Shown here: piece after piece, positions 1,968 to 16,106 of the stretch
Numbering within the stretch: position 1 is the first letter of the stretch
Layout of the letters: each line of letters starts with the position of its first letter
Assembly (NCBI GenBank): GCA_965227515.1
Contig: CBDDFZ010000001.1
Span: forward strand, 224,001 to 288,000
Reading direction: 5' to 3'
DNA length: 64,000 nt
DNA from: Alphaproteobacteria bacterium
GTDB taxonomy: Bacteria; Pseudomonadota; Alphaproteobacteria; CALKHQ01
Made by a program: the position numbers and the translations under genes
Notes under the pieces: generated by a model
What the model saw: the letters and a program-made list of their open reading frames with translations, nothing else
What the model was told of the DNA's origin: nothing
The model's database searches: none

Positions 1968-2789
1968 TCAGATTGCCAAATACTCGTGGCGCATCTTCTC
2001 GTCGTCCAGCACCTCTTGCGCGGTGCCGTCGAACACCACCTTGCCCATGTCCAGGATCAGGGCCCGGTCGGCCAGATGCAGTGCGGCGATCGCGTTCTGC
2101 TCGACAATGACGGTGGTGATGTTCTGCGACTTGATGTGCTCCAGCGTGCGCTCGATCTCCTGCACGATCACCGGTGCCAGTCCCTCATAGGGCTCGTCCA
2201 GCAGCAAGAGCTTGACCTCGCGGGCCAGCGCGCGCGCAACCGCGAGCATTTGCTGCTCGCCGCCGGAAAGCGTCACCGCCTCCTGCTTGCGCCGTTCCGC
2301 CAGCCGGGGGAACAGCTCGTAAAGCTGATCCAGCGACCAGCCGACGGGCGGCGCGATCTGGGCCAGCTTCAAATTCTCTTCCACCGACAGGCCCTGGATG
2401 ATGCGCCGGTCCTCCGGCACCAGGCCCAGGCCGTTCTGCGCCGCCTGGAAGGCGCGCATCTTGTGCAGCGCCTGACCGTCCAGCCAGATCTCGCCCTGGT
2501 GCAGCGCCGGGCTATCGACGCGTGCCAGCGCGCGCAGGGTCGACGTCTTGCCGGCGCCATTGCGGCCGAGCAGGGCGAGGATTTCGCCCTCGCGCACGTC
2601 GAAGCTGACACCCTGCACGATGTAGCTCTCGCCGTAGTAGGCGTGCACGTCCTGCACCGACAGGAATGCAGGCGCGGTGGCCGCACCGGCCGCCGGCGCG
2701 GCCTCGGTGGTCGCGGCCTGGCGAGGCGGCTGTTGGGAGATGTCTGCGGTATCCATGTCCCTACTTAGCAAACCTGGCATCGCCGTCAT
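1968..2789 (-). CDS. HAAT (branched-chain amino acid type) ABC transporter ATP-binding protein, LivF-like
   Basis: GRNGAGKT Walker A, LSGGEQQ signature, LLLLDEP; ATG 2789 overlaps the upstream stop (ATGA). Confidence 0.9.
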   Translation of the reverse strand: MTAMPGLLSRDMDTADISQQPPRQAATTEAAPAAGAATAPAFLSVQDVHAYYGESYIVQGVSFDVREGEILALLGRNGAGKTSTLRALARVDSPALHQGEIWLDGQALHKMRAFQAAQNGLGLVPEDRRIIQGLSVEENLKLAQIAPPVGWSLDQLYELFPRLAERRKQEAVTLSGGEQQMLAVARALAREVKLLLLDEPYEGLAPVIVQEIERTLEHIKSQNITTVIVEQNAIAALHLADRALILDMGKVVFDGTAQEVLDDEKMRHEYLAI

Positions 2790-3541
2790 AGGTGTGCGCC
2801 CCCAAGATAAGCCTCCTGGACCTTCGGATTGCCCTTGATGTTCTCGGGCTCGTCTTCCGCGATCACGGTGCCCTGCGCCAACACCGAGATCCGGTCGGCC
2901 AGCGAGAACACCACGTGCATGTCGTGCTCGATGACGATCATGGTGATGCCGCGTGCCGCGATCTTCTTCAGGAGTTCGATGGTGTTGTTGGTGTCGGCGC
3001 GCGACATGCCGGCGGTCGGCTCGTCCAGCAGCAGCAGCTTCGGCTCCTGCACCAGGCACATGGCCAGCTCAAGCCGCCGCTTGTCGCCGCGCGAGAGCTG
3101 GTTCGCCACCGTGTCGGCATGGCGGGCGAGCCCGACATCCTCCAGCATCGACATCGCCCGTCCGCGGATCTCGGACTCGTCGTCCATGTCTTTCCAGCCG
3201 TTCAGCGTGAACGCACCGTCGCGCTTGGCGAAGGCCGGGATCATCACGTTGCGTAGCAGCGTCAGGTCGCCGAAGATTTCGGGCGTCTGGAACACGCGGC
3301 TGACGCCGACCTGATTGATCTGGTGCGGCTTCAGGCCGAGCAGGGACTTGCCCTCGAACTCCACCGTGCCGGTGTCGGGGTCGAGCCGACCGACGAAGCA
3401 GTTGAGCAGGGTCGACTTGCCGGCGCCGTTGGGCCCGATGATGGCGTGGACCCGCCCCTCGGCGATCTCCAGGTTGACCTCGTTCAGCGCCTGCAGGCCG
3501 CCGAACCGCTTGTTGACGTTGCGAACGGTGAGGATGCTCAT
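2786..3541 (-). CDS. HAAT ABC transporter ATP-binding protein, LivG-like
   Basis: GPNGAGKST, LLLLDEPTAGM, IEHDM, C-terminal VQEAYLG. Confidence 0.92.
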   Translation of the reverse strand: MSILTVRNVNKRFGGLQALNEVNLEIAEGRVHAIIGPNGAGKSTLLNCFVGRLDPDTGTVEFEGKSLLGLKPHQINQVGVSRVFQTPEIFGDLTLLRNVMIPAFAKRDGAFTLNGWKDMDDESEIRGRAMSMLEDVGLARHADTVANQLSRGDKRRLELAMCLVQEPKLLLLDEPTAGMSRADTNNTIELLKKIAARGITMIVIEHDMHVVFSLADRISVLAQGTVIAEDEPENIKGNPKVQEAYLGGAHL

Positions 3542-3553
3542 GTCGGCGCTCCC

Positions 3554-4783
3554 CTATTCCGCCGGTACGGCGCTGGCCGGCCTGTCGGACGTTCCGTCGC
3601 CCGACTTGGCCGCATGGGTCGCGCTGCCCGGCGAGCCGCCGCCGCGCCCGCGTCGTCGGAACAGCCGACCGATGCGCTGCAGGCCCTCCATCAGGCCGCC
3701 CGGCATGAAGATGACGATGGCCATGAACACGAGGCCGAGCAGCAGGTGCCAGCCACCACCGACGAACGGGCCGACCACGGTCACCAGGGCCGAGTTCGCC
3801 CAGTCCGGCAGGAAGCTGAAGGCATCGACCAGCAACTGGTCGTTGAAGGCGGAGACCTTCTGCTCAAGGTACTTGATGACGCCCGCGCCCAGCACCGGCC
3901 CGATCAGCGTGCCGGCACCGCCCAGAATGGTCATCAGCACCACCTCGCCCGAGCGGGTCCACAGCATGCGGTCCGCGCCCGCCGTCGGGTCGACCGCCGC
4001 CATCAGCCCGCCGGCCAGCCCGGCATACATGCCGGAGATGACGAAGGCCGCCAGCGTGTAGGGCTTGGTGTTCAGGCCGGTGTAGTTCATCCGGTTCTGG
4101 TTCGATTTCACCGCCCGCAGCATCATGCCGAACGGCGACCGGAAGATGCGCATCGCCAGATAGAACGCGAAGATCGTGATGATGCCGCAGAAGTAGTAGC
4201 CGACGTTGAATTGCAGCTCGAAGCCCAGGAACGTGGTGACCCAGGTCTCCTGCATCTCCAGCCCGAACAGATTGGTGCTCGGCAGCGTGCCGCCCTGGGT
4301 GGCCCCGTCGAGGATGCGGGGATCGTCCAGATTGCGCTGCAGGCCGTTCTCGCCACCGGTGACGGGCGTCAGCACGGAATAGGCCAGCGTGTGGGCCATC
4401 TGCGCGAAGGCCAGGGTCAGGATTGAAAAGTAGATGCCGGTCCGCTTCAGCGAGATGTAGCCGATGATCACCGAGAAGATGCCGGCCAGCAGCACGGCAA
4501 GGATCAGCGCCGGCAGCACGTTCATGGTCAACAGCTTCATCGACCACACCGCAGCGTACGAGCCCACGCCGACGAAGGCGGCGTGCCCGAACGAGAGGTA
4601 GCCGGTCAGCCCGAACAGGATGTTGAAGCCGACCGCGAACAGGCCGAAGATCACGAACTTCTGCATCAGGTCCGGATAGCCGGCGCCCAGCGGCGCCAGG
4701 ATCACGGGCGCGAGGACGATCGCTGCGATCAGGCCGATCAAGAGCCAGGTGTTGGTGCGGGCACCGTGGATGGTGTTTGACAT
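3554..4783 (-). CDS. HAAT ABC transporter permease, LivM-like
   Basis: [37 protein letters not shown]; hydrophobic. Confidence 0.9.
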
Positions 4784-4786
4784 GGC

Positions 4787-5815
4787 TCAGCTCTCCATCA
4801 CGCCCTTGCGGCCCATCAGCCCGCGCGGCCGGGCCAGCAACACGATGATGGCGACCAGATAGATGATGACCTGGTCGATGCCGGGCAGGATGCTGGTGAC
4901 TTCGCTCATGGCGGCGAACGCCTGCAGGATGCCGAGCAGGAAGCCCGCCGCGACCGCACCGGCCAGCGACCCCATGCCGCCGACGACGACGACGATGAAG
5001 CTGTAGACCAGGAAGTCCATCGCCCACTGCGGCTCCGGGTTCTGGATCGGCGCGTACATCACGCCGGCCACGCCCGCAACGACCGCGGCAAGCCCGAACA
5101 TGATGGTGAAGCGCTTGTCGATGTTGATGCCGAGAAGGCCCACCGTCTCGCGGTCGGCCATGCCGGCGCGCACCACCATGCCGAAGGTTGTGAGGTGCAG
5201 GAAGGCGAACACGCCTGCTATCACGATGACGGCGAACAGGAAGTAGATCGAGCGCCAGGCACCATAGACGACGCGGCCCGGCTCGAAGCCGATGGCGACC
5301 CCGAAGTCGACCATGCCGGTCAGGTCCTCTGGGCTGTCCTGGGCGATGCCGGTGGCGCCGAAGATGCCCTTGATGATCTCGTAGAGCACGATCGCCAGGC
5401 CGAAGGTGACCAGGATCTGCTCGGCGTGGGTGCGCTTGTAGAAGAACTTGATCAGCCCGCGTTCCATGATCACGCCGACCAGCAGCATCAGCGGCACGGC
5501 GATCAGCAACGACAGCGGGACGGAATAGTCGACCAGGATGGTGCCGAACTCGCCGAACCATTCCTCGACGATGGGCGTGCGGATCTCAAGCGGCGAGCCC
5601 CAGGCCGTGGTCTCGGTCTCGCTGAGAACCACGCTCTCCAGGCTCAGCACCTTGTTCAGCGCCACCGCGCAGAAGCCGCCCAGCATGAACAGGGCGCCGT
5701 GGGCGAAGTTGACCACGCCCAGCGTGCCGAAAACGATGGTCAGCCCCAGCGCGATCAGCGCGTAGGAGCTGCCCTTGTCGAGTCCGGTGATGAATTGGAG
5801 GACTATAGCTTCCAT
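4787..5815 (-). CDS. HAAT ABC transporter permease, LivH-like
   Basis: YALIALGLTIVFGTLGVVNFAHG, VVVVGGMGS, RPRGLMG. Confidence 0.9.
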   Translation of the reverse strand: MEAIVLQFITGLDKGSSYALIALGLTIVFGTLGVVNFAHGALFMLGGFCAVALNKVLSLESVVLSETETTAWGSPLEIRTPIVEEWFGEFGTILVDYSVPLSLLIAVPLMLLVGVIMERGLIKFFYKRTHAEQILVTFGLAIVLYEIIKGIFGATGIAQDSPEDLTGMVDFGVAIGFEPGRVVYGAWRSIYFLFAVIVIAGVFAFLHLTTFGMVVRAGMADRETVGLLGINIDKRFTIMFGLAAVVAGVAGVMYAPIQNPEPQWAMDFLVYSFIVVVVGGMGSLAGAVAAGFLLGILQAFAAMSEVTSILPGIDQVIIYLVAIIVLLARPRGLMGRKGVMES

Positions 5816-5893: not shown

Positions 5894-7237
5894 TCAGGTG
5901 CCCGGGTTGCACTCACCCAGCTCGCCGCCGGCGAACATCGGATGGTCGGGCGCGTAGGTGACCTGCGCGGCCGGCACCACTTCGACGACCTCGAGCACGT
6001 CGAACTGGTTCTCCGGCTCTTCCTTACCACGCACGACCAGCACGTCCTTGAAGCACTGGTGGTCCTCGGCGCGATACAGCGTCGGGCCGTTGCCCATGCC
6101 GTCGAACTCGAAGCCTTCCAACGCCTCGGCGACGCCGCACGGGTTGAAGGTGCCCGCACGCTCGCACGCGTCGGCGTAGAGGATCGCCTGCACGTAGCAG
6201 GTGTGGGCCGCCTGGCTGGGCGGGAAGCCGTACTTCTGGCCGAACGAGGTGACGAACGCCTTCGAGCCCTCGTCCTGCAGCGACCAGTGCCAGTTGGTGG
6301 AACCGAAGATGCCCTTCACGTTCTCGCCCGCGCCCTGCGCCATCAGGCGGGAGTACAGCGGCACCACGACCTCGAAGTTGCGGCCGTTGACTTCCTTCTC
6401 GCGCAGGCCGAACTGCACCGCCTGGGTCAACGAGTTGACCATGTCGCGGCCATAGTGGTTCAGCACCAGCACGTCGGCGCCGGAGTTCAGCACCGGGGTG
6501 ATGTACTGCGAGAAGTCGCCGGCACCCAGCGGGGTCAGCACGGTCTCGACCGTCTCCCAACCCAGGGCCTCGGTGGCCGCGACGATCGATTCCTGCTGCG
6601 TCCAGCCCCAGGTGTAGTCGGCGGTCAGGTGATAGGCCTTGCGGTCGGCGCCATAATTGGCTTCGAGCACCGGCGCCAGCGCCGCACCCGACATATAGGC
6701 GTTGAAGAAGTGGCGGAAGCCGTTGGCCTTCTTGTCCTTGCCCGTGGTGTCATTGGAGTGGGTCAGGCCGGCCATGAAGATGACGCCGGCTTCCTGACAC
6801 AGGTCCTGCACCGCGATGGCGACACCGGACGACGAGCCACCGGTGATCATGACAGCGCCGTCGGCCTCGATCATGCGGCGGGCCGAAGCGCGGGCCGCGT
6901 CGGAGTTGGTCTGGGTGTCGCCGGTCACGTAGGCGACTTCCTTGCCGAGCACGCCGCTGCCGGTCAGCGCGTTCGACGAGAACGTGTTCAGCATGCCGCC
7001 GTCGCCGCCGCCGTTCAGGTGCTCGACCGCCAGCTCGTACGCGCGCAGCTCGTCCGCGCCCTCGTCGGTGTAGGCGCCGGTCTGCGGCACGTTGAAGCCG
7101 AAGGTGACGGTGGAGCCGGTGGGCTCATTGGTGTACGCCCAGGCGCTCTTCGAGATGATCGTCGGCGCGGCGATGCCGGCTCCGACGGCGGCGCTGGTCT
7201 TCAGAAGACCGCGGCGGCTGAGTTTCAGGTCCTTCAT
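5894..7237 (-). CDS. HAAT ABC transporter substrate-binding protein with Tat signal peptide
   Basis: Start MKDLKLSRRGLLK (twin-arginine) after a GGAGG RBS; periplasmic binding protein type 1 motifs (PQTGAY, ADYTWG). Confidence 0.88.
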   Translation of the reverse strand: MKDLKLSRRGLLKTSAAVGAGIAAPTIISKSAWAYTNEPTGSTVTFGFNVPQTGAYTDEGADELRAYELAVEHLNGGGDGGMLNTFSSNALTGSGVLGKEVAYVTGDTQTNSDAARASARRMIEADGAVMITGGSSSGVAIAVQDLCQEAGVIFMAGLTHSNDTTGKDKKANGFRHFFNAYMSGAALAPVLEANYGADRKAYHLTADYTWGWTQQESIVAATEALGWETVETVLTPLGAGDFSQYITPVLNSGADVLVLNHYGRDMVNSLTQAVQFGLREKEVNGRNFEVVVPLYSRLMAQGAGENVKGIFGSTNWHWSLQDEGSKAFVTSFGQKYGFPPSQAAHTCYVQAILYADACERAGTFNPCGVAEALEGFEFDGMGNGPTLYRAEDHQCFKDVLVVRGKEEPENQFDVLEVVEVVPAAQVTYAPDHPMFAGGELGECNPGT

Positions 7238-7479
7238 GCATTCCTCCCTCGTGTTGTGCCTTTGGTGATGTGCCCGGCCCATCTGCCCGAGCGGCAACTG
7301 GGTCTGCCGCAGCGTTCCCCCGACCGGATGACCGTTTCCCGATCGGCTGGCCGGACGACCGAACCTTGGATGATTCGGCGTGCCGGCGGACTGCCCCACA
7401 ACGCAGGCACGGCCATATACTGTGAGCGAACATGCCAAATCGGTGTCAAGATCGAAATAACTAATTGATTTGACGCCGA

Positions 7480-7545
7480 AAGTTTGTAAATTCACCGACG
7501 AGACGATTTGTCGATTTGTCAATTGTTGACATTGCACCGCAGCAT
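7480..7545. promoter_or_regulatory. Divergent promoter region with a ScfR-like TTTGTAAA element and a PhaR-type box TGCACCGCAGCA (7533-7544)
   Basis: AT-rich intergenic stretch; TTTGTAAA at 7483-7490 resembles RamB/PccR TTTGCAAA half-sites; box fits the alphaproteobacterial PhaR consensus TGCRNYGCASMA. Confidence 0.5.
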
Positions 7546-7571
7546 GTGCGGGTGCGAAATGGAGCATAGGG

Positions 7572-8966
7572 ATGTCCACCAACATCCTGGGCACGCGCAT
7601 TCGCGAGCACCGGCGTGGACTGGGCATCACCCAGGCTGACCTTGCCCGCCAGATCGGCATTTCGCCGTCCTATCTGAACCTGATCGAGCACAACAAGCGC
7701 GGTATCGCCGGTGCGCTGCTGCGCAAGCTGGCCGACGCGCTGCGGCTGAGGCTCGACGAGCTGGACGGCGCCGGCGAGCGCCGCATCCTGGAGACGCTGA
7801 ACGAGATCGCGGTCGCCCCGAACCTGGAGGGGCTGGGGGTCGAGGCCGAGCACGCGGGCGAGCTGATCGGGCGTTATCCCGGCTGGGCCCGGGCGCTCGC
7901 CGCGCTGGCCCGTTCCGAGCGCACCGCCACCGCCGCCGCGCGGGCGCTGGCCGACCGGCTGACCCACGACCCGTTCCTGGGCGACACCGTGCACCGCATG
8001 CTGACCCGCATCGCCTCCATCCGCTCGGCGGCGGAGATCCTGGCCGAGTTCCCGGACATCGCCGAGGCGCAGCGCGCCCGCTTCCACCGCATCGTGTACG
8101 AGGAGAGCCGCATCCTGTCCGACATCGCCGACGCGCTGGCCGGCTATTTCGACCGCGTCGACGAGACCGAGCGCACGCTGACGCCGCTGGACGAGGTGGA
8201 AGCGCTGTTCGAGGCGCGCGCCAACCACTTCGCCGAGATCGAGACCGCGGCGGTGCAATGGGCGGATGTGGCGGTCACCGGCACGCCCGAGCAGCGCTGG
8301 GAGACGGCCGCCGAGATCGCCGACACGCATGTCGGGCGGCTGATCGACCGGGTGATCGACCGGCAGCCGGAGATCGAGTCCGCGCCGGCGCGCGCCCGTG
8401 CCCGCCGCGCGCTTGTCGACTACACCGTGGCGGCGATCCTGGCGCCGATGCCGGAATTCGCCCCGGCGGCGGCCGAACTGCGCTACGACCTGGAGGCGCT
8501 GGACGCCCGCTTCGCCCTGGGGTTCGAGACCATCTGCCACCGGCTGACCGCGCTGCCCGACGGCGAGGAGACGCCGCGTTTCGGCTATTTCCGCGCCAAT
8601 GCCGCCGGCACCCTGGTGGAGATGCGCGGCCTGCCCGGCCTGGCGATGCCGCGCTATGCCTCGGCCTGCCCGCTGTGGGTGCTCTACCGCGCGCAGCAGT
8701 CGCCGGAGGCGGTCATCCGCCAGCGCACCGTGTTCCCCGACGGCACCCGGTTCATCTTCCTGGGCCGGGCGCGCAATACCGGCATCTCCGGCTTCGGCCG
8801 CCCCCGCCACTACCTGACCGACATGCTGGCGCTGAGCGAGGCCGACGCGCGGCTGACCGTCTATGCGCCCGACGGTACCGTGCCGGTGGAGGAGGTCGGG
8901 CCCGGTTGCCGGCTCTGCCCCCGCGACGCCTGCGCCCACCGGGTCGAGGACCCGCTGGTGGGATAG
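7572..8966 (+). CDS. XRE/ScfR (RamB/PccR/PrpR) family short-chain fatty acid regulator with an internal DHp-like segment
   Basis: N-terminal HTH (GITQADLARQIGISPSYLNLIEHNKR); ACPLW and C-terminal GPGCRLCPRDACAHR Fe-S motif. Confidence 0.88.
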   Translation: MSTNILGTRIREHRRGLGITQADLARQIGISPSYLNLIEHNKRGIAGALLRKLADALRLRLDELDGAGERRILETLNEIAVAPNLEGLGVEAEHAGELIGRYPGWARALAALARSERTATAAARALADRLTHDPFLGDTVHRMLTRIASIRSAAEILAEFPDIAEAQRARFHRIVYEESRILSDIADALAGYFDRVDETERTLTPLDEVEALFEARANHFAEIETAAVQWADVAVTGTPEQRWETAAEIADTHVGRLIDRVIDRQPEIESAPARARARRALVDYTVAAILAPMPEFAPAAAELRYDLEALDARFALGFETICHRLTALPDGEETPRFGYFRANAAGTLVEMRGLPGLAMPRYASACPLWVLYRAQQSPEAVIRQRTVFPDGTRFIFLGRARNTGISGFGRPRHYLTDMLALSEADARLTVYAPDGTVPVEEVGPGCRLCPRDACAHRVEDPLVG

Positions 8967-8973
8967 CCGCCGC

Positions 8974-9093
8974 CGTCATCGCGAGGAGCCCCAATCGTCT
9001 GAGGGGCGACGAAGCGATCCAGGCGATTGCCACGACGTGGTCGACGATGCTCTGGATTGCCGCGTCGCGCTTTCAGCGCTCCTCGCAATGACG
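8974..9093. repeat. CGTC-type palindromic intergenic repeat
   Basis: CGTCATCGCGAGGAGC...GACGAAGCGATCCAG...CTGGATTGCCGCGTCGC...GCTCCTCGCAATGACG nested inverted repeats. Confidence 0.8.
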
Positions 9094-9113
9094 TTCAATG
9101 ACTAGGAGAACCC

Positions 9114-9488
9114 ATGTTCGATCACGTCAAGTTCGGGGTCAGCGACTTTGCGGCGAGCAAGGCGTTCTTCCTACAGGCGCTCGCGCCGCTCGGCCTGGCC
9201 GCCGTCGCGGAAGGGGAGCCGACGTACGGCGTTGAGCTCAGCCATGACGGCAAGACCTCGCTGATCCTGTTCCAGACCGACGAGAAGCCGGCGCCGCTCC
9301 ATCTGGCGTTCGTCGCCGAAACCCGCCGGCAGGTCGATGAATTCCATCGCGCGGCGCTGGCGGCGGGCGGTGCCGACAACGGCGCGCCGGGCGTGCGTCC
9401 GCAGTACAACGCCACCTACTACGCGGCCTTCGTGATCGGTCCGGACGGCCACAACATCGAGGTTGTCTGCCACCAACCGGAAGCCTGA
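9114..9488 (+). CDS. VOC/glyoxalase family protein
   Basis: MFDHV...HLAF...GGADNGAPGVRPQY...YYAAFVIGPDGHNIEVV. Confidence 0.9.
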   Translation: MFDHVKFGVSDFAASKAFFLQALAPLGLAAVAEGEPTYGVELSHDGKTSLILFQTDEKPAPLHLAFVAETRRQVDEFHRAALAAGGADNGAPGVRPQYNATYYAAFVIGPDGHNIEVVCHQPEA

Positions 9489-9603
9489 GACCCGCCCCCG
9501 TTGCGCCGCCTGCAACTCCCCTGATTACAAAACCGCGCCAATCGCCTAACCTTCCGGCAACGACCCGCGGCAAACCGGGCGGTCGGTGGGGAGAGGCAAA
9601 CGC

Positions 9604-9975
9604 ATGGGCAAGCGCGTTCTCATCGCGGAGGACGAGCCCTATATCGTCGAATCGCTGACGTTCCTGCTGGAGCGCGCCGGCTTTGCCGTGACCGCACAGG
9701 TCGACGGCATCGCGGCGCTGGAGGCGGCCCTGGCCGCCCCGCCCGACGTGATGATCCTGGACGTGATGCTGCCAGGCGCCGACGGGTTCGAGGTGCTGCG
9801 CCGCCTGCGGCGCGACCCGCGCGCCCGCGCGCTGCCGGTGATCATGCTGACCGCGAAGGGCCAGCGCGAGGACCGCGAGACCGCGCTGGACAGCGGCGCC
9901 GACGTCTTCATCACCAAGCCGTTCTCCAATGCCGACGTGGTCGCCGCCGTCACCCGGTTGGCGGACGACCTCTGA
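9604..9975 (+). CDS. Single-domain response regulator (receiver only)
   Basis: LIAEDE, ILDVMLP (phospho-Asp), MLTA, FITKPF; no output domain. Confidence 0.92.
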   Translation: MGKRVLIAEDEPYIVESLTFLLERAGFAVTAQVDGIAALEAALAAPPDVMILDVMLPGADGFEVLRRLRRDPRARALPVIMLTAKGQREDRETALDSGADVFITKPFSNADVVAAVTRLADDL

Positions 9976-9997
9976 TCGCTTCGGCGAAGCGCGCGCC

Positions 9998-10342
9998 ATG
10001 TCGGACAGCACCGGCGAAGACCGTCGCGATCCTTCCGGCCGGATCGGCAACCGGCGCGACAACCAGCCGATGCGCGACCGCAAGCTGCGCGACCGGGCAC
10101 TGATCCTGCCCGTCGTCGGCCTGATCCTGCTGATCCCGCCGGTCGCCAGCATCTTCCAGATCGACGGCCGCATCGGCGGCGTGCCGGTGACGCTGGCCTA
10201 TATCTTCGCGGTGTGGGCGGCGCTGATCGCCTGCGCGTTCTGGTTGTCGCGGCGCTTGGGCCCCGGTGACGACGACCCGGTGGCGCCGGCGGAGGGCGCA
10301 AGCAACAGCCCGCCCGACCCGCCAAGCGCGACGACGCCCTGA
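9998..10342 (+). CDS. Small two-helix membrane protein translationally coupled to the SLC5-kinase
   Basis: Two hydrophobic segments (ALILPVVGLILLIPP; GVPVTLAYIFAVWAALI); stop overlaps the kinase ATG; start could be 10070. Confidence 0.7.
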   Translation: MSDSTGEDRRDPSGRIGNRRDNQPMRDRKLRDRALILPVVGLILLIPPVASIFQIDGRIGGVPVTLAYIFAVWAALIACAFWLSRRLGPGDDDPVAPAEGASNSPPDPPSATTP

Positions 10343-13035
10343 TGCTTTCCGTCGACCTGATCCTCGGCTTTTGCGTCGGCTACGTCGCGCTCTTGTTCGC
10401 GGTTGCCTTCTTCGTCGACCGCTGGGCGCGGCAGGGCCGTGCCGGCTGGCTGAGTTCGCCGGTGATCTACACCCTGTCGATCTCGGTCTATTGCACGGCC
10501 TGGACGTTCTATGGCGCGGTCGGCTCGGCGGCGCGCAACGGGCTGGAGTTCGCCACCATCTACCTGGGGCCGACCCTGGTGTTCGTCGGCTGGTTCTGGC
10601 TGCTGCGCAAGCTGGTGCGCATCGGCCGCGCCCACCGCATCACCTCCATCGCCGACCTGATCTCGTCGCGCTACGGCAAGTCGGCGTCCATCGCCGTGCT
10701 GGTCACCCTGATCGCGCTGATCGCCACCACGCCCTACATCGCGCTGCAGTTGCAGTCGGTCACCCGCAGCTACCAGGTTATCACCGGCGAAAGCGACGGC
10801 GCCGGCACCGCGTTCTGGATCGCTGCCGGGCTCGCCCTGTTCGCGATCCTGTTCGGCACCCGCAACCTGGACGCCAACGAGCGCCACCACGGCGTGGTTG
10901 CCGCCATCGCGGTGGAGGCGGTGGTGAAGCTGCTGGCGCTGATCGCGGTCGGCGTGTTCGTGGTGTTCGGGGTCGCCGGCGGGCTGGACGAGATCTTCGC
11001 CGACGTGCCGGACGAGGTGATCTATGGCAGCGGCGACGTGTTCGGCGCGCGCTGGCTGGCGCTGATCTTCCTGTCGGCGGCAGCCATCATCTGCCTGCCG
11101 CGCCAGTTCCAGGTGACGGTGGTGGAGAATGTCGACGAGCGCCACCTGGCGACCGCGTCGTGGCTGTTCCCCCTTTACCTGTTCGGCATGAGCCTGTTCA
11201 TCATGCCGATCGCGCTGGCGGGGCTGAAGTACCTGCCCGCCGGGTCCGACCCCGACCTGTTCGTGCTGACCCTGCCATTGCAGGAAGAGCGGCACGAACT
11301 GGCGCTGCTGGCGTTCCTGGGCGGGTTCTCGTCGGCCACCTCCATGGTCATCGTCGCCGCCATCGCGGTGTCGACCATGGTGTCGAACCACATCGTGATG
11401 CCGATCCTGCTCCAGTTCATGCCGGCCAGCCGCGGCGTGTCAGGCGACGTGCGCTCGCTGCTGCTGGTCACCCGCCGGGTCTCCATCGCCTTCATCCTGG
11501 GGCTCGGCTACCTGTATTTCCGGCTGACCGGCGGGTCGGACGCGCTGGCCGCCATCGGCCTGATCGCGTTCGTCGGCGTCGCCCAGTTCCTGCCAAGCCT
11601 GGTCGGCGGCATCTTCTGGCGCGGCGCCACCCGCACCGGCGCGCTGACCGGGCTTGCCGCCGGCTTCCTGCTGTGGACCTACACCTTGTTCCTGCCCAGC
11701 TTCGGCGGCGACTTCCTGCTCGGGCCGGAGGTGCTGCGCGACGGGCCGTGGGGCATCGCCGCCCTCAGGCCGCAGGCGCTGCTGGGCCTGCAGGGCTGGG
11801 ACCCGCTGGTGCATGCGCTGGTCTGGAGCGTCGGCGTCAACACGCTGCTGTTTCTGGTGGTGTCCGCCCTCAGCGAGGCGCGGGCGCTCGACCGGCTGCA
11901 AGGCGCCCTGTTCGTCGACGCATTCCGTGCGTCCGGCGGCGAGACGCCGCGCTTCGTCGCCGGCTCGGTGACGTCGGAGAACCTGTTCGTGCTCGCCCAG
12001 CGCATCCTGGGCAGCGGCCCCGCCCGCGCCCTGTTCGACGAAATCGCGCGCGACCAGGGCCGCAGCGGATCGCTGCCCGCCCCGACCGACGCCGCCATCG
12101 CCCGCCTGGAGCGCGAACTGTCGGGCTCCATCGGCGCCGCGTCCGCGCACGCCATGGTCGGCCGGGTCGCCGGGCGCGAGAGCGTCGGCATGACCGAGCT
12201 GATCGACATCGCCGACGAAACCCAGCGCCTGATCGTCACCTCGCGCCGGCTGTCGGAGAAATCCGCCGAGCTGGAGCGCGCCGCCCACCAGTTGCGCGAG
12301 GCCAACGAGCGGCTGCGCGCGCTCGACGCCCAGAAGGACGAGTTCCTCAGCCAGGTGAGCCACGAGCTGCGCACGCCGATGACCTCGATCCGCTCGTTCT
12401 CCGAGATCCTGCTGAGCCAGGACGGCGACGTATCGGACGCCGAGCGCGAGCGCTTCGTCTCCATCATCAATGACGAAAGCCTGCGCCTGACCCGGCTGCT
12501 GGACGAAATTCTCGACATCAGCCGGCTGGAGGCGGGCACGCTCAGCCTGCCGATGGGGGTGGTGGAGCCGGACGGCGCGATCAGCGCCGCGCTCGACACC
12601 GTCGCCGGCGTCATGCGCAAGAGCGGCGTCGTCGTGCACCGCGAGCCGGTGCCGGACGGGGTGCGGGTGGCGGCCAACGAGGACCGGCTGCGCCAGGTGC
12701 TGATCAACCTGCTGTCCAACGCGATCAAGTACAACACCGCGCCGGCGCCGGAGATCACCGTGCAGCCGCGCACCGACGGCAACGAGGTCACCATCGACGT
12801 CATCGACAATGGCGGTGGCGTCAGCCGGGCGGAGGCCGCCACGGTGTTCGAGAAGTTCGCTCGCGGCAGCCGTGCCGCGCGCGACCATGGCGCCGGCCTG
12901 GGCCTCACCATCAGCCGTGCGATCATGCGCACCATGGGCGGCGACCTGACGCTGGAGTTCACCGGCCGCGACACCAGTTTCTTCCGCCTGCACCTGACCC
13001 GCGCCGGCGACCACGCTCCGGCGCAAGCCGAATGA
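10342..13035 (+). CDS. Sodium:solute symporter (SLC5)-STAC-histidine kinase fusion, CrbS/MxtR/CbrA-like
   Basis: YTLSISVYCTAWTFYG and SIADLISSRYGKS SLC5 motifs; LSGSIGAASA STAC-like segment; SHELRTP H-box, NLLSNAIKY, DNGGG, GAGLGL. Confidence 0.9.
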   Translation: MLSVDLILGFCVGYVALLFAVAFFVDRWARQGRAGWLSSPVIYTLSISVYCTAWTFYGAVGSAARNGLEFATIYLGPTLVFVGWFWLLRKLVRIGRAHRITSIADLISSRYGKSASIAVLVTLIALIATTPYIALQLQSVTRSYQVITGESDGAGTAFWIAAGLALFAILFGTRNLDANERHHGVVAAIAVEAVVKLLALIAVGVFVVFGVAGGLDEIFADVPDEVIYGSGDVFGARWLALIFLSAAAIICLPRQFQVTVVENVDERHLATASWLFPLYLFGMSLFIMPIALAGLKYLPAGSDPDLFVLTLPLQEERHELALLAFLGGFSSATSMVIVAAIAVSTMVSNHIVMPILLQFMPASRGVSGDVRSLLLVTRRVSIAFILGLGYLYFRLTGGSDALAAIGLIAFVGVAQFLPSLVGGIFWRGATRTGALTGLAAGFLLWTYTLFLPSFGGDFLLGPEVLRDGPWGIAALRPQALLGLQGWDPLVHALVWSVGVNTLLFLVVSALSEARALDRLQGALFVDAFRASGGETPRFVAGSVTSENLFVLAQRILGSGPARALFDEIARDQGRSGSLPAPTDAAIARLERELSGSIGAASAHAMVGRVAGRESVGMTELIDIADETQRLIVTSRRLSEKSAELERAAHQLREANERLRALDAQKDEFLSQVSHELRTPMTSIRSFSEILLSQDGDVSDAERERFVSIINDESLRLTRLLDEILDISRLEAGTLSLPMGVVEPDGAISAALDTVAGVMRKSGVVVHREPVPDGVRVAANEDRLRQVLINLLSNAIKYNTAPAPEITVQPRTDGNEVTIDVIDNGGGVSRAEAATVFEKFARGSRAARDHGAGLGLTISRAIMRTMGGDLTLEFTGRDTSFFRLHLTRAGDHAPAQAE

Positions 13036-13162: not shown

Positions 13163-13425
13163 ATTGGCGTGCCAATGTGCTATGGCTTCGCGCGGCTGGA
13201 TTCGGGGCTATTGCGGCGACGGGGCGCGACAAGATGTGTCAGGTTGTCACGTTGTTGGCACGCGTGCTGCGGCTATAACTCCGGCTGGTCGACGCGTCGT
13301 CACGCGCTCGCGTGATTTTTGACGTGCCGATGCCTGTGCAGGATCCTGTGGCCGGGGTCCGACGAGACGAGGCACTGGACCGCCAAGCCGCAAGCCTGCG
13401 GCGGGCGCCTTCACGGAGGATGGGT

Positions 13426-13998
13426 ATGGCCGACGATGTCCATGCTGGCGCGCAAGACGCGGAAGATCCGGCACGACGCGACTTTCTGTATCTGACGACG
13501 GGCGCCTTTGCCGCCGTCGGCGGCGCGTTGTTTGTCTGGCCCTTCATCAACAGCATGAATGCTTCCCAAGATGTCATCGCGGCCGGCGTCCCGATCGAGG
13601 TCGACATCTCCGGCGTGGGCGAAGGCCAGGCGCTTACCGTGATCTGGCGTGGCGAGGCGGTGTTCATCCGCAACCGAACGCTCGACGAGATCGAAGAGGC
13701 CCGCGCGGTGCCGCTGGACGACCTGCCCGACCCGGCGACCGATGAGTCGCGGGTGAAGCCCGAGCACGACGCCTGGATCATCGTGAAGGGCGTGTGCACC
13801 CATCTGGGCTGCGTGCCGCTCGGCCAGAAACCCAGCGACAACCGGGGCGACTACGGTGGCTGGTTCTGCCCCTGTCACGGCTCCCACTACGACACGTCCG
13901 GCCGCATCCGGCTGGGCCCGGCACCGGCCAACCTGATCGTGCCGCCATACCGGTTCGCCGAGAACGACATCCTGGTCGTCGGCGAGGAGGCTGCCTGA
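13426..13998 (+). CDS. petA: Ubiquinol-cytochrome c reductase Rieske iron-sulfur subunit
   Basis: RRDFL Tat motif, CTHLGCVP and CPCHGSHYD boxes; GGAGGA RBS before ATG 13426. Confidence 0.97.
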
Positions 13999-13999
13999 T

Positions 14000-15298
14000 A
14001 TGAGCGGATCGTCCTCAAAGTACGAGTTCAAGAACGGCTTCGTGCGCTGGGTCGACGAGCGCCTGCCCGTCTTCAGCTACATGCAGAAGGAGTATGGGGA
14101 GTATCCGGCACCCCGGAACTTCAACTACTTCTGGAACTTCGGCGCGCTGGCCATGCTGGTGCTGGTGACCATGCTGGTGACCGGCATCGTGCTCGCCATG
14201 CACTACCAGCCCAATGCCGACCTGGCGTTCAATCAGGTCGAGCACATCATGCGCGACGTGAACAACGGCTGGCTGCTGCGCTACATCCACATGAACGGGG
14301 CGTCGATGTTCTTCATCGTCGTCTACATCCATATGTTCCGCGGGCTGTGGTACGGCTCGTACAAGAAGCCGCGCGAGCTCTTGTGGATCCTGGGCGTGAT
14401 CATCTTCGTCCTGATGATGGCCACCGCGTTCATGGGCTATGTGCTGCCCTGGGGCCAGATGAGCTTCTGGGGCGCCAAGGTCATCACCAACCTGTTCTCC
14501 GCCATCCCATTGGTCGGCGAGAGCGTCACGGAATGGCTGTGGGGCGGCTACACCGTCGGCGAGCCGACGCTGAACCGCTTCTTCGCGCTGCACTACCTGC
14601 TGCCGTTCGTCATCGTCGGCGTGGTGGTGCTGCACGTGATCGCGGTCCACATCGTGGGCTCCAACAACCCGCTGGGCATCGACCCGAAGGGCCCGCAGGA
14701 CACGCTGCCGTTCCATCCGTACTACACGATGAAGGACAGCTTCGGCGCCTGCGTGTTCCTGATCTTCTTCGCCGCGTTCGTGTTCTTCGCGCCGAACTAC
14801 ATGGGCCACCCGGACAACTACATTCCGGCCAATCCGGGGGTGACGCCGGCACATATCGTGCCTGAATGGTACTTCCTGCCGTTCTACGCCATCCTGCGCG
14901 CGGTGCCGGATATCTGGTTCATCCCGGCCAAGCTGGCCGGCGTGCTGGCCATGTTCGGGTCGCTGCTGCTGCTGGCGCTGGCACCCTGGCTGGACCGCTC
15001 GCCGGTTCGCTCGTGCAAGTTCCGCCCGGTCTACAAGTGGTTCCTGGTGCTGTTCGTCGCCGACGTCATTCTGCTCGGGTTCGCCGGCGCCAAGCCGGCC
15101 GAGGGGGCGTGGCTGGCCATCGGCCGGATTGCGACGCTGTGGTACTTCATCCACTTCCTCATCATCATGCCGCTGGTCGGCAAGCTGGAGCGGCCATTGC
15201 CGTTGCCGACGAGCATCCGCGACGCGGTACTGAAACACAGCCCGGGCGGAGGCGGGGTGCCGGCTGGCGCCGCGGCCAAGCCGATGGACAAGGCCTAG
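14000..15298 (+). CDS. petB: Cytochrome b
   Basis: [22 protein letters not shown] motifs. Confidence 0.98.
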
Positions 15299-15308
15299 GA
15301 GACCGACA

Positions 15309-16106
15309 ATGAAATCGTTCGTCTTTGCCGGCTTCGTCATCGCCGCCGCCAGTCTGACCGCCGGGACCGCGTTCGCGCAGGAAGAGGCCGGCCACGCCGA
15401 GGATGCCGGCGGCCACGCCGAGATCGAAATCCCATCCCACAACTGGGCCTGGGACGGCATCTTCGGCAGCTTCGACAATGCGCAACTGCAGCGCGGCTTC
15501 CAGGTCTACCAGCAGGTGTGCGCGCTCTGCCACTCGATGGAGCTGGTCGCGTTCCGCCATCTGGAAGGCATCGGCTTCAGCGAGGAAGACATCGAAGCGA
15601 TCGCCGCCCAGTACACCATGGACGACATCAACTTCGAGACCGGCCAGCCGATGGAGCGTCCCGGCCGCCCGGCCGACTACCTGCCGTCGCCCTATCCGAA
15701 CGAGACCGTCGGCCGCTACACCTATGGTGTGTATCCGCCGGACCTCAGCGTCATCTCCAAGGCTCGCGCGGGCGGCGCCGACTACATCTTCGCGCTGCTG
15801 ACCGGATATACCGATCCGCCGGCCGATGTCGAACTGACGCCGCGCCAGCAGTACAATCTGTACTTCCCGGGCCACGTCATCGCGATGCCGAAGCCGCTGA
15901 ACGACGGCCAGGTCGAGTATGTCGACGGCACGCCGAACACGGCGGTGCAGATGGCCGAGGACGTGTCCGCGTTCCTGGCCTGGGCGTCGGAGCCGAGCCT
16001 GGTCGACCGCAAGGAACTGGGCGTCAAGGTCATCCTGTTCCTGCTGGTGCTGACCGGCCTGATGTATGCGGTGAAGCGCAAGATCTGGTCCAACGTGGAG
16101 CATTGA
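15309..16106 (+). CDS. petC: Cytochrome c1
   Basis: LQRGFQVY, CALCH heme motif, PPDLS, C-terminal anchor KRKIW. Confidence 0.97.
   Translation: MKSFVFAGFVIAAASLTAGTAFAQEEAGHAEDAGGHAEIEIPSHNWAWDGIFGSFDNAQLQRGFQVYQQVCALCHSMELVAFRHLEGIGFSEEDIEAIAAQYTMDDINFETGQPMERPGRPADYLPSPYPNETVGRYTYGVYPPDLSVISKARAGGADYIFALLTGYTDPPADVELTPRQQYNLYFPGHVIAMPKPLNDGQVEYVDGTPNTAVQMAEDVSAFLAWASEPSLVDRKELGVKVILFLLVLTGLMYAVKRKIWSNVEH

Follow-up and report, generated by a model that had tools for sequence, protein, structure and literature searches.

A DHp-like hairpin in an ScfR-family regulator encoded beside an SLC5 sensor kinase and a single-domain receiver

Sensor histidine kinases such as CbrA, CrbS and RpuS carry an SLC5 transporter-like sensor fused to a dimerization and histidine phosphotransfer (DHp) domain and an ATPase domain, and in the accounts available of CbrA/CbrB (PMC13022988), CrbS/CrbR and RpuS/RpuR the response regulator itself controls transcription. 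Regulators of the ScfR family (MtPrpR, RamB, PccR) are described as combining an XRE-type helix-turn-helix (HTH), an IrrE-like domain (DIII) and a GAF-like domain with a C-x2-C-x4-C motif and one further Cys for a [4Fe-4S] cluster, and they neighbour glyoxylate, methylcitrate or propionyl-CoA carboxylase genes (PMC6765138, PMC10370305). Here, we analyzed a window of 64,000 nucleotides (nt), that is, the whole stretch from position 224,001 to 288,000 of contig CBDDFZ010000001.1 (forward strand; Alphaproteobacteria bacterium, assembly GCA_965227515.1), in which parts of both systems occur together. An ScfR-family regulator with the features listed above is encoded there beside an SLC5 kinase built like CbrA, CrbS and RpuS. 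In contrast to the known members of the two groups, the regulator neighbours a two-component pair and an ABC transporter, the kinase is accompanied by a bare receiver only, and within the regulator stands a two-helix hairpin with homology to the kinase DHp.

An original prediction, made by a model from the sequence alone, had proposed that the receiver docks on this hairpin or exchanges phosphate with it, and had supposed that such an architecture was undescribed. Judged by listed titles and abstract openings, none of the papers found describes a DHp in an XRE or ScfR factor, so that known parts (ScfR, DHp, SLC5 kinase) stand here in a wiring that is undescribed as far as the literature found goes. 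One sentence in PMC10370305 mentions that Pden_1785, an ScfR-like gene of Paracoccus, clusters with a two-component system, and a supplementary network figure of that paper may show the cluster.

The hairpin and its origin

Residues 133–195 of the regulator are homologous to the DHp of the neighbouring SLC5 kinase. BLASTP aligned regulator residues 132–187 with kinase residues 665–725 at 24 of 61 identical positions (E 3e-7), His on His, in agreement with the roughly 20 identities in 50 positions, His included, that had been counted by hand in the original prediction; the codon positions given there for regulator F135 (7974) and H141 and for kinase H674 (Table 1) were likewise right. A comparison by hhalign of a profile of 80 regulators with the kinase profile yielded a probability of 98.8% (E 1.1e-16) over 105 columns. 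When a 43-row profile of the segment was searched against 177,635 PDB sequences, the best match was HK853 (E 1e-4), whose His (numbered H260 in this analysis) was aligned with that of the regulator, and 14 of the 18 matches at E ≤ 1 were histidine kinases or DivL (DivL 4q20, E 0.026). The HK853 rewiring positions A268, A271 and T275, taken from the titles of HK853 PDB entries and mapped through this alignment, correspond to Ala149, Ser152 and Ile156 of the regulator and to Ser682, Ser685 and Ile689 of the kinase. A scan for HisKA, which the original prediction had suggested, thus succeeded at the level of profile comparison but not with the Pfam HisKA model: it gave matches at E ≤ 1 in 16 of 30 orthologues (best 0.0013), and the regulator is not among the 47 HisKA matches of its genome.

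Structure prediction gave a concordant picture. In the AlphaFold2 model of the regulator, helices span residues 134–159 and 165–195, with predicted local distance difference test (pLDDT) values of 73–90 in 10-residue blocks (residues 141–190), and a model of the hairpin segment had a pLDDT of 81.8. A Foldseek search with the segment model returned HK853 in all of the top 12 rows (E 0.058–0.28; root mean square deviation 2.5–3.1 Å over 73–74 columns in most rows); the rows below were mainly other kinases, with SrrB, KinB, DivL, YycG and an EnvZ chimera among them. No row reached E ≤ 0.001, as expected for two helices. With the full-length model, Foldseek found MtPrpR, IrrE and HTH domains only, which is uninformative on the hairpin. 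A two-helix DHp-like hairpin is therefore both predicted and homologous to HisKA, as the original prediction required, and two of its details are confirmed as well: the residue after the His (H+1) is Arg, and Pfam detected no HATPase_c domain in the regulator.

The protein that carries the hairpin is a member of the ScfR family. Its parts are an HTH at residues 10–64 (XRE type; Pfam HTH_3, E 1.5e-12), a long helix at 103–132, the hairpin at 133–195, a shortened IrrE-like DIII, a GAF-like domain and a C-terminal Fe-S module. The regulator scored 73.6 bits (cut-off 24) for the ScfRs C-terminal domain PF09856, which was present in 30 of 30 orthologues, and Peptidase_M78 (IrrE-like) was matched weakly (27.2 bits; 22 of 30 orthologues). 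MtPrpR (6cz6) was recovered at E 3.8e-30 by sequence and at E 5.8e-14 by fold (Foldseek, full-length model). The regulator stayed below the RamB equivalog NCBIfam NF038139 (182.3 bits, cut-off 700), for which residues 241–458 only were aligned.

Unlike the ScfR family as described, the regulator has an insertion in its DII region and a deletion in DIII. A global hhalign alignment left residues 133–194 of the regulator, that is, 62 residues, without a counterpart in the two ScfR paralogues of the same genome. Regulator–paralogue alignments by MAFFT and BLASTP ran through the middle region and hid the insertion; they were rejected, and we relied on the global profile alignment instead. In crystals of MtPrpR, DII is a disordered region (PMC6765138). 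A motif preceding the first visible helix of MtPrpR (about F155) corresponds to regulator residues 205–209 by residue count, in an alignment whose first domain is weak, and on this basis we assigned the hairpin to DII. The same global alignment showed that about 45 residues of DIII present in both paralogues are missing from the regulator, and the AlphaFold2 model contains no strands between residues 196 and 336, while the complete DIII of MtPrpR consists of nine helices and a three-stranded sheet (PMC6765138).

We traced the origin of the insertion with a hidden Markov model (HMM) of the hairpin, run without filters against all 34,579 open reading frames (ORFs) of the genome. The regulator scored 106 bits and the neighbouring kinase was second with 51.0 bits, followed by scores of 23.5, 17.8 and 17.0 bits; on the generic HisKA model, the same kinase is only 18th among the 47 matches. 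In 151 genomes of the class, the proteins found at E ≤ 1e-10 besides the regulators were 24 SLC5 kinases (about 900–1040 amino acids) and one protein of 717 amino acids. The hairpin is an insertion derived from the lineage of CbrA-type SLC5 kinases.

The insertion is also conserved. Among 80 relatives of the regulator from species genomes of Alpha- and Betaproteobacteria (28–68% identity to the regulator), the hairpin was present in all, down to 28% overall identity. The column of His141 contained His in 75 of 80, and Arg (L021), Leu (L022), Gln (L031), Asn (L063) and Phe (L082) once each, so that loss of the His, which would have spoken against the original prediction, was confined to five relatives. 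Two of these, L022 and L031, lack the kinase in the locus, as do 4 of 63 His-bearing loci with enough flanking sequence, numbers that are too small to interpret. Across 66 loci, the regulator hairpin retained His in 64, Thr or Ser at H+4 in 59, Arg at H+10 in 61 and Ser at H+11 in 58, and H+1 was Glu in 21, Arg in 13 and Gln in 12. The canonical H-box was strongest in the most divergent members; for example, L077 reads SHELRT. In an alignment of 30 orthologues the segment formed a long run of conserved columns. A search of the segment profile against 1.84 billion representatives gave 562 clusters (50% identity) at E ≤ 1e-10, and in the best 150 of the 562 the segment was located near residues 97–200 of regulator-sized proteins or of their fragments.

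The C-terminal half of the regulator also bears on its input. Residues C366, C446, C449 and C454 align with the cluster ligands C363, C447, C450 and C455 of MtPrpR, and these four predicted [4Fe-4S] cysteines were invariant in alignments of 30 and of 39 sequences. By residue count on a pairwise alignment, R338, K347 and K410 of MtPrpR, of which K347 is the CoA-phosphate (diphosphate) lysine (PMC6765138), fall on R341, E350 and H413 of the regulator. E350 (codon 8619–8621) is nearly invariant, and H413 adjoins R412. The ligand of the hairpin-bearing subfamily may be other than a CoA ester.

The locus and its conservation

The original prediction held that the regulator, the receiver and the SLC5 kinase belong together, and we examined this in the 69 loci in which 4.5 kb or more of sequence follow the regulator. 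A receiver was present within 1.5 kb downstream on the same strand in 59 of the 69 loci and the kinase within 3.5 kb in 58, and the order regulator, receiver, kinase was observed in 58 loci, namely in all of those that contained both genes at these distances. The gap between regulator and receiver had a median of 120 nt (64 loci). In one genome the module is split: the regulator is located separately (L039), and at L086 a binding-protein gene stands divergently beside the receiver, the small ORF and the kinase with no regulator between them.

We further compared the presence of the genes in the 151 genomes of the class, which are spread across families yet related, so that the following counts form a strong table and not a formal test. 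Regulator and kinase occurred together in 19 genomes, the regulator alone in none, the kinase alone in 5 and neither in 127. All 19 regulator genomes contain a short SLC5 kinase (895–1041 amino acids) at least 50% identical to the kinase of the window. Seven genomes have only longer SLC5 kinases (1150–1284 amino acids) and no regulator, and 120 have no SLC5 kinase; in this sample, the longer type co-occurs with the regulator only if the short type is also present. Co-occurrence was accordingly as predicted, both in gene order and across genomes. The expected contrast with hairpin-less homologues holds in the source genome: there, 2.4 and 3.7 Mb separate the two ScfR paralogues from the single SLC5 kinase.

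The features of the locus are listed in Table 1.

Table 1. Features of the locus (positions in the window) and PAS–RNase_T proteins of other genomes (positions in the named loci)
Feature	Position	Strand	Evidence or remark
ABC transporter ATPase, second of two	1968..3059	(-)	ABC_tran E 7.3e-30, ORF residues 149–291; ORF limits, true start probably ~2780
ABC transporter ATPase, branched-chain amino-acid type	2786..3541	(-)	ABC_tran E 9.8e-34 and BCA_ABC_TP_C
ABC permease	3554..4783	(-)	BPD_transp_2 E 2.9e-35
ABC permease	4787..5815	(-)	BPD_transp_2 E 1.3e-32
Periplasmic substrate-binding protein, TAT signal, divergent from regulator	5894..7234	(-)	Peripla_BP_6 E 1.1e-66
Divergent promoter region, candidate operator box	7235..7571	.	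TTTGTAAAT 7483–7491; CGATTTGT repeats 7504–7519
ScfR-family XRE regulator, 464 amino acids	7572..8966	(+)	HTH_3, ScfRs PF09856 and Peptidase_M78 matches
DHp-like helical hairpin of regulator, residues 133–195	7968..8156	(+)	His141 codon 7992–7994
Glyoxalase/VOC-family gene, between regulator and receiver	9114..9488	(+)	Glyoxalase E 1.9e-9
Single-domain response regulator, 129 amino acids, probable start ATG 9604	9586..9975	(+)	Response_reg E 4.6e-28, sole domain
Small membrane protein, CbrX position	9998..10342	(+)	ORF list
CbrA-type SLC5 sensor histidine kinase, 897 amino acids	10342..13035	(+)	PDB 10ED_A, HisKA, HATPase_c
Kinase DHp (HisKA)	12331..12537	(+)	Pfam HisKA; phospho-acceptor His674 codon 12361–12363
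PAS–DHp–RNase_T proteins	L092:5729–7807; L094:6477–8609; L091:10696–12795	(+); (+); (-)	RNase_T E 1e-35 to 2e-40

Residues 8–475 of the kinase match PDB 10ED_A (E 1.2e-73), the CbrXA SLC5–STAC structure (PMC13022988). This match and a weak one to NCBIfam MctP (E 1.1e-8) are the basis of the SLC5 assignment, and together with HisKA (residues 664–732, E 4.5e-18) and HATPase_c (779–885, E 5.2e-23) they justify the label of SLC5 kinase used in the original prediction. Pfam assigned no family to residues 1–663 and neither PAS nor STAC was detected there; the 10ED match ends at 475, and a diverged STAC domain is possible. A receiver domain was not detected in the kinase by Pfam. The separate receiver has the acidic pair, the phospho-acceptor Asp, the Thr and the Lys, all invariant in 39 relatives. 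Since it matches Response_reg alone, and this is the one such match in the window (the genome has 50), the earlier description of it as the only response regulator there, without a DNA-binding domain, was accurate.

A two-helix membrane ORF ends at base 10342, where the ATG of the kinase starts, so that the two overlap by one base. Although Pfam and NCBIfam contained no family for this small protein, weak relatives of it precede the kinase in many loci. The arrangement resembles cbrX–cbrA of Pseudomonas, in which cbrX is described as a small upstream gene that encodes a membrane peptide and is translationally coupled to cbrA (PMC13022988).

Divergently from the regulator runs a five-gene ABC operon of the branched-chain amino-acid type (binding protein, two permeases, two ATPases). 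Among the 70 loci with 2 kb or more of upstream sequence, 53 have a relative of the binding protein (65–81% identity) divergently beside the regulator. The nearest solved relatives of this protein are uncharacterised or bind urea or amino acids. Of the 80 upstream regions of 300 nt, 54 contain TTGTAAA and 53 contain TGTAAAT, and the motif is often palindromic, TGTAAAT-N2-3-ATTTACA. The box TTTGTAAAT of the window is a candidate operator; it differs by one base from the operator box of MtPrpR, TTTGCAAA (PMC6765138), a further likeness to the ScfR family. The family-wide box TTTGTAAAT lies in an AT-rich stretch (7430–7530) within a region of 66–70% GC. Repeats specific to the window were also observed, namely CGATTTGT twice in tandem, GATTTGACG at 7467–7475 and an inverted copy at 7433–7442.

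The glyoxalase gene lies outside the conserved module and is a peculiarity of the source genome; a relative was seen in one of 80 loci, at another position there. Three ORFs directly after the kinase (13312–13998, 14000–15298 and 15309–16106) resemble, to judge from their translations by eye, a Rieske iron-sulfur protein, cytochrome b and cytochrome c1, and are apparently unrelated to the module.

Receiver, hairpin and rival explanations

A kinase–receiver pair without an output is thus found with a regulator bearing a copy of a receiver-docking surface, and we therefore propose that the hairpin is the site at which the receiver acts on the regulator. We consider it fairly likely that the receiver, phosphorylated by the kinase, does so either by docking or by transfer of phosphate, with the regulator as the output of the system; in other words, the copy of the kinase DHp probably lets an output-less receiver plug into a transcription factor. 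Contact between receiver and hairpin, a role of phosphorylation in it, the promoter that is controlled and the direction of control are all inferred; the sequence of events would be as follows. An ScfR-type XRE factor would have gained a copy of the DHp of a CbrA-type SLC5 kinase in its flexible DII linker, between the DNA-binding domain and the ligand-binding module. The kinase, reporting on its transporter-like domain, would phosphorylate the bare receiver, and the receiver would then engage the DHp-like bundle of the regulator with the same face that it uses on the kinase, either in phosphorylation-dependent docking or in phosphoryl exchange with His141. Binding of the regulator dimer to TTGTAAA-type boxes in the divergent promoter would change as a result, and with it the control of the ABC transporter operon and probably of the regulator's own operon. 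The hairpin lies after the coiled helix that leads to the HTH and stands directly ahead of the helix whose MtPrpR counterpart contacts the acyl group of bound CoA; because of this position, the receiver and the Fe-S/ligand inputs could converge on one lever.

Whether the His itself takes part is a separate matter. Retention of the His in 94% of relatives favours His chemistry, and a possible, if rather doubtful, form of the proposal is a His–Asp–His phosphorelay ending on a transcription factor, in which phosphate would pass from the kinase to the receiver and on to His141 of the regulator, and phospho-His would set DNA binding, gated by the Fe-S/acyl-CoA module. Docking alone could suffice, in view of the five losses of the His, the non-acidic residues at H+1 and the precedent of DivL (PMC4211667).

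Complex prediction, which had been suggested with the original prediction, was run with a hairpin dimer and the receiver. The score was 0.54 (runs 0.60, 0.54 and 0.54) compared with 0.00 for the best control, the runs agreed in at least 90% of contacts, and the pLDDT of the partner was at least 83. Calibration of the tool had placed 58 of 80 solved complexes and 2 of 110 mismatched pairs at or above the mark, and scores of 0.60 or below comprised only 7 of the 80 solved complexes and both of the passing mismatches. The verdict of the tool is weak support, and the pass may reflect a memory of solved kinase–regulator complexes in the model.

Several observations weigh against an action of the receiver on the hairpin, and the weak band of this score is one of them. 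Within 66 loci, the hairpin was no more similar to its cognate kinase than to the others (17.39 compared with 17.37 identities of 55), and the cognate kinase had a median rank of 29.5 of 66; by BLOSUM score, cognate kinases stood at 69.7 and the others at 67.7 (permutation P = 0.007), but the comparison has little power because the kinase DHp is too conserved. Mutual information with average product correction between receiver and regulator (69 pairs) gave no enrichment of the hairpin, with 0 of the top 20 pairs compared with 3.0 expected and 28 of the top 200 compared with 30.1, in a test that is underpowered and dominated by changes between clades. Position H+12 is Phe in 63 of 66 kinases and Thr, Ala or Ser in the regulators, so that the docking face is not identical in the two. 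The Pfam HisKA score of the regulator is 13.0 bits, below the cut-off of 26.9. Of the relatives without the His, L021 and L063 nevertheless keep an adjacent receiver and kinase. Finally, gene order is broken in 11 of the 69 loci: five contain receiver and kinase in another arrangement, in five of the other six the kinase is encoded outside the locus, and for L031, where the His is replaced by Gln, a search of the genome found no such kinase. Thus, the homology, the His and the co-occurrence that the original prediction called for hold, whereas both covariation tests gave null results and the contact between receiver and hairpin is presumed.

Some of these counterpoints are accommodated by an explanation in which the hairpin is an oligomerisation module only. 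Its four-helix bundle would replace dimer or tetramer contacts lost with the deletion in DIII, the receiver would act on another target, and the regulator and two-component genes would be clustered through co-regulation or a shared transporter. The roughly 45 missing residues, the absence of strands at 196–336 in the model and the use of the DIII sheet for inter-chain contacts in MtPrpR (PMC6765138) are consistent with it, as are the two null covariation tests, the weak complex score and the loss of the His in 5 of 80 relatives. However, a bundle as such needs neither the His kept in 75 of 80 relatives nor the Thr/Ser at H+4, the Arg at H+10 and the Ser at H+11. In DHp structures, all of these positions, the His included, are solvent-facing. 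The explanation also does not account for the resemblance of the hairpin to one kinase lineage among the 47 HisKA matches of the genome, nor for the finding that the regulator never occurs without the kinase (19 of 19 genomes), and it leaves the receiver without a known target; we regard it as unlikely. A pure relic of signalling, captured once as a domain fragment and kept for structure only, would explain the sub-threshold Pfam score and the missing ATPase domain. It is very improbable in view of the long run of conserved columns in 30 orthologues, the presence of the hairpin in 80 of 80 relatives and the fact that the most divergent members, such as L077, have the most canonical H-box.

The likeness between hairpin and kinase could instead mean that these two pair with each other. 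A mixed bundle would then sequester the factor at the membrane, or the ATPase domain of the kinase would phosphorylate His141 directly, and the receiver would be a phosphate sink or competitor. Presumably buried positions are indeed alike (F135/F668, L136/L669, I150/I683, I156/I689 and L157/L690), the hairpin is closest to the DHp of its partner kinase, and H+1 is Glu in 21 of 66 regulators. An acidic H+1 is, however, required for the chemistry of autophosphorylation, and paralogous DHps normally avoid heterodimers; the window has Arg at H+1 and 45 of 66 regulators have a non-acidic residue there, no cognate-specific similarity was seen in the 66 loci, and pairing of this kind gives no necessary role to a receiver that is strictly adjacent in 59 of 69 loci. 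We consider such pairing improbable, and action of the receiver on the hairpin is the reading that we retain.

Other outputs and comparison with known systems

The five genomes that contain the kinase and receiver but not the regulator provide a further view of how the pair reaches an output. In three of them, a protein of about 700 amino acids with a PAS domain, a degenerate DHp and an RNase_T/DEDDh exonuclease domain is encoded between receiver and kinase (Table 1). The degenerate DHp was HisKA-like at E 0.019–0.058 in two of the three, with Glu at the position of the His as judged by eye, and the same receiver may have in this protein another type of output that bears a DHp. In a fourth genome, a NarL/FixJ-type regulator (Response_reg and GerE; L090:6538–7173, minus strand) directly follows the short SLC5 kinase, upstream of which a bare receiver is also present. 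On account of these proteins, the receiver–kinase pair seems to recruit different outputs, at least two kinds of them with DHp-like modules.

Most single-domain receivers have no known target, and it is therefore an open question how they influence gene expression. If our proposal is true, a testable answer can be read from sequence: the target bears a copy of the docking hairpin of the kinase. The DHp of the exonuclease protein would then hint at a rule, whereby single-domain receivers reach their outputs via decoy copies of a kinase DHp, and this would account together for many orphan receivers encoded beside SLC5 kinases. Metabolite sensing of the one-component kind (Fe-S, acyl-CoA type) and transporter-linked sensing of the two-component kind would meet in one decision point, at the linker that is thought to carry the ligand signal to the HTH in ScfR proteins. 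We know of no other transcription factor with a phospho-accepting DHp as its input domain, and the regulator would be the first if the phosphorelay form is true. The family is large (562 clusters; 19 of 151 genomes of the class; further relatives in Betaproteobacteria), and the strongly conserved ABC transporter would offer a simple reporter.

Among known systems, the DivL–DivK pair of Caulobacter resembles our proposal: in the published account, the kinase-inactive DHp of DivL serves as an input sensor that binds the single-domain receiver DivK through the ordinary docking face and so reverses the usual flow of information (PMC4211667). The regulator described here differs in that the hairpin stands alone within a DNA-binding protein and keeps the His in 75 of 80 relatives. 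DivL, in contrast, is a complete pseudokinase that retains PAS and ATPase-like domains, has Tyr in place of the His and acts on another kinase instead of DNA.

With respect to the phosphorelay form, Spo0B and ChpT offer the comparison: in both, a hairpin of the DHp type carries a phosphorylatable His, a functional ATPase is absent, and phosphate comes from a single-domain receiver. They differ from the regulator in that a second receiver takes over the phosphate and that domains for binding DNA or a ligand are missing. Because no second receiver is encoded near the regulator, His141 would be the end point of the relay.

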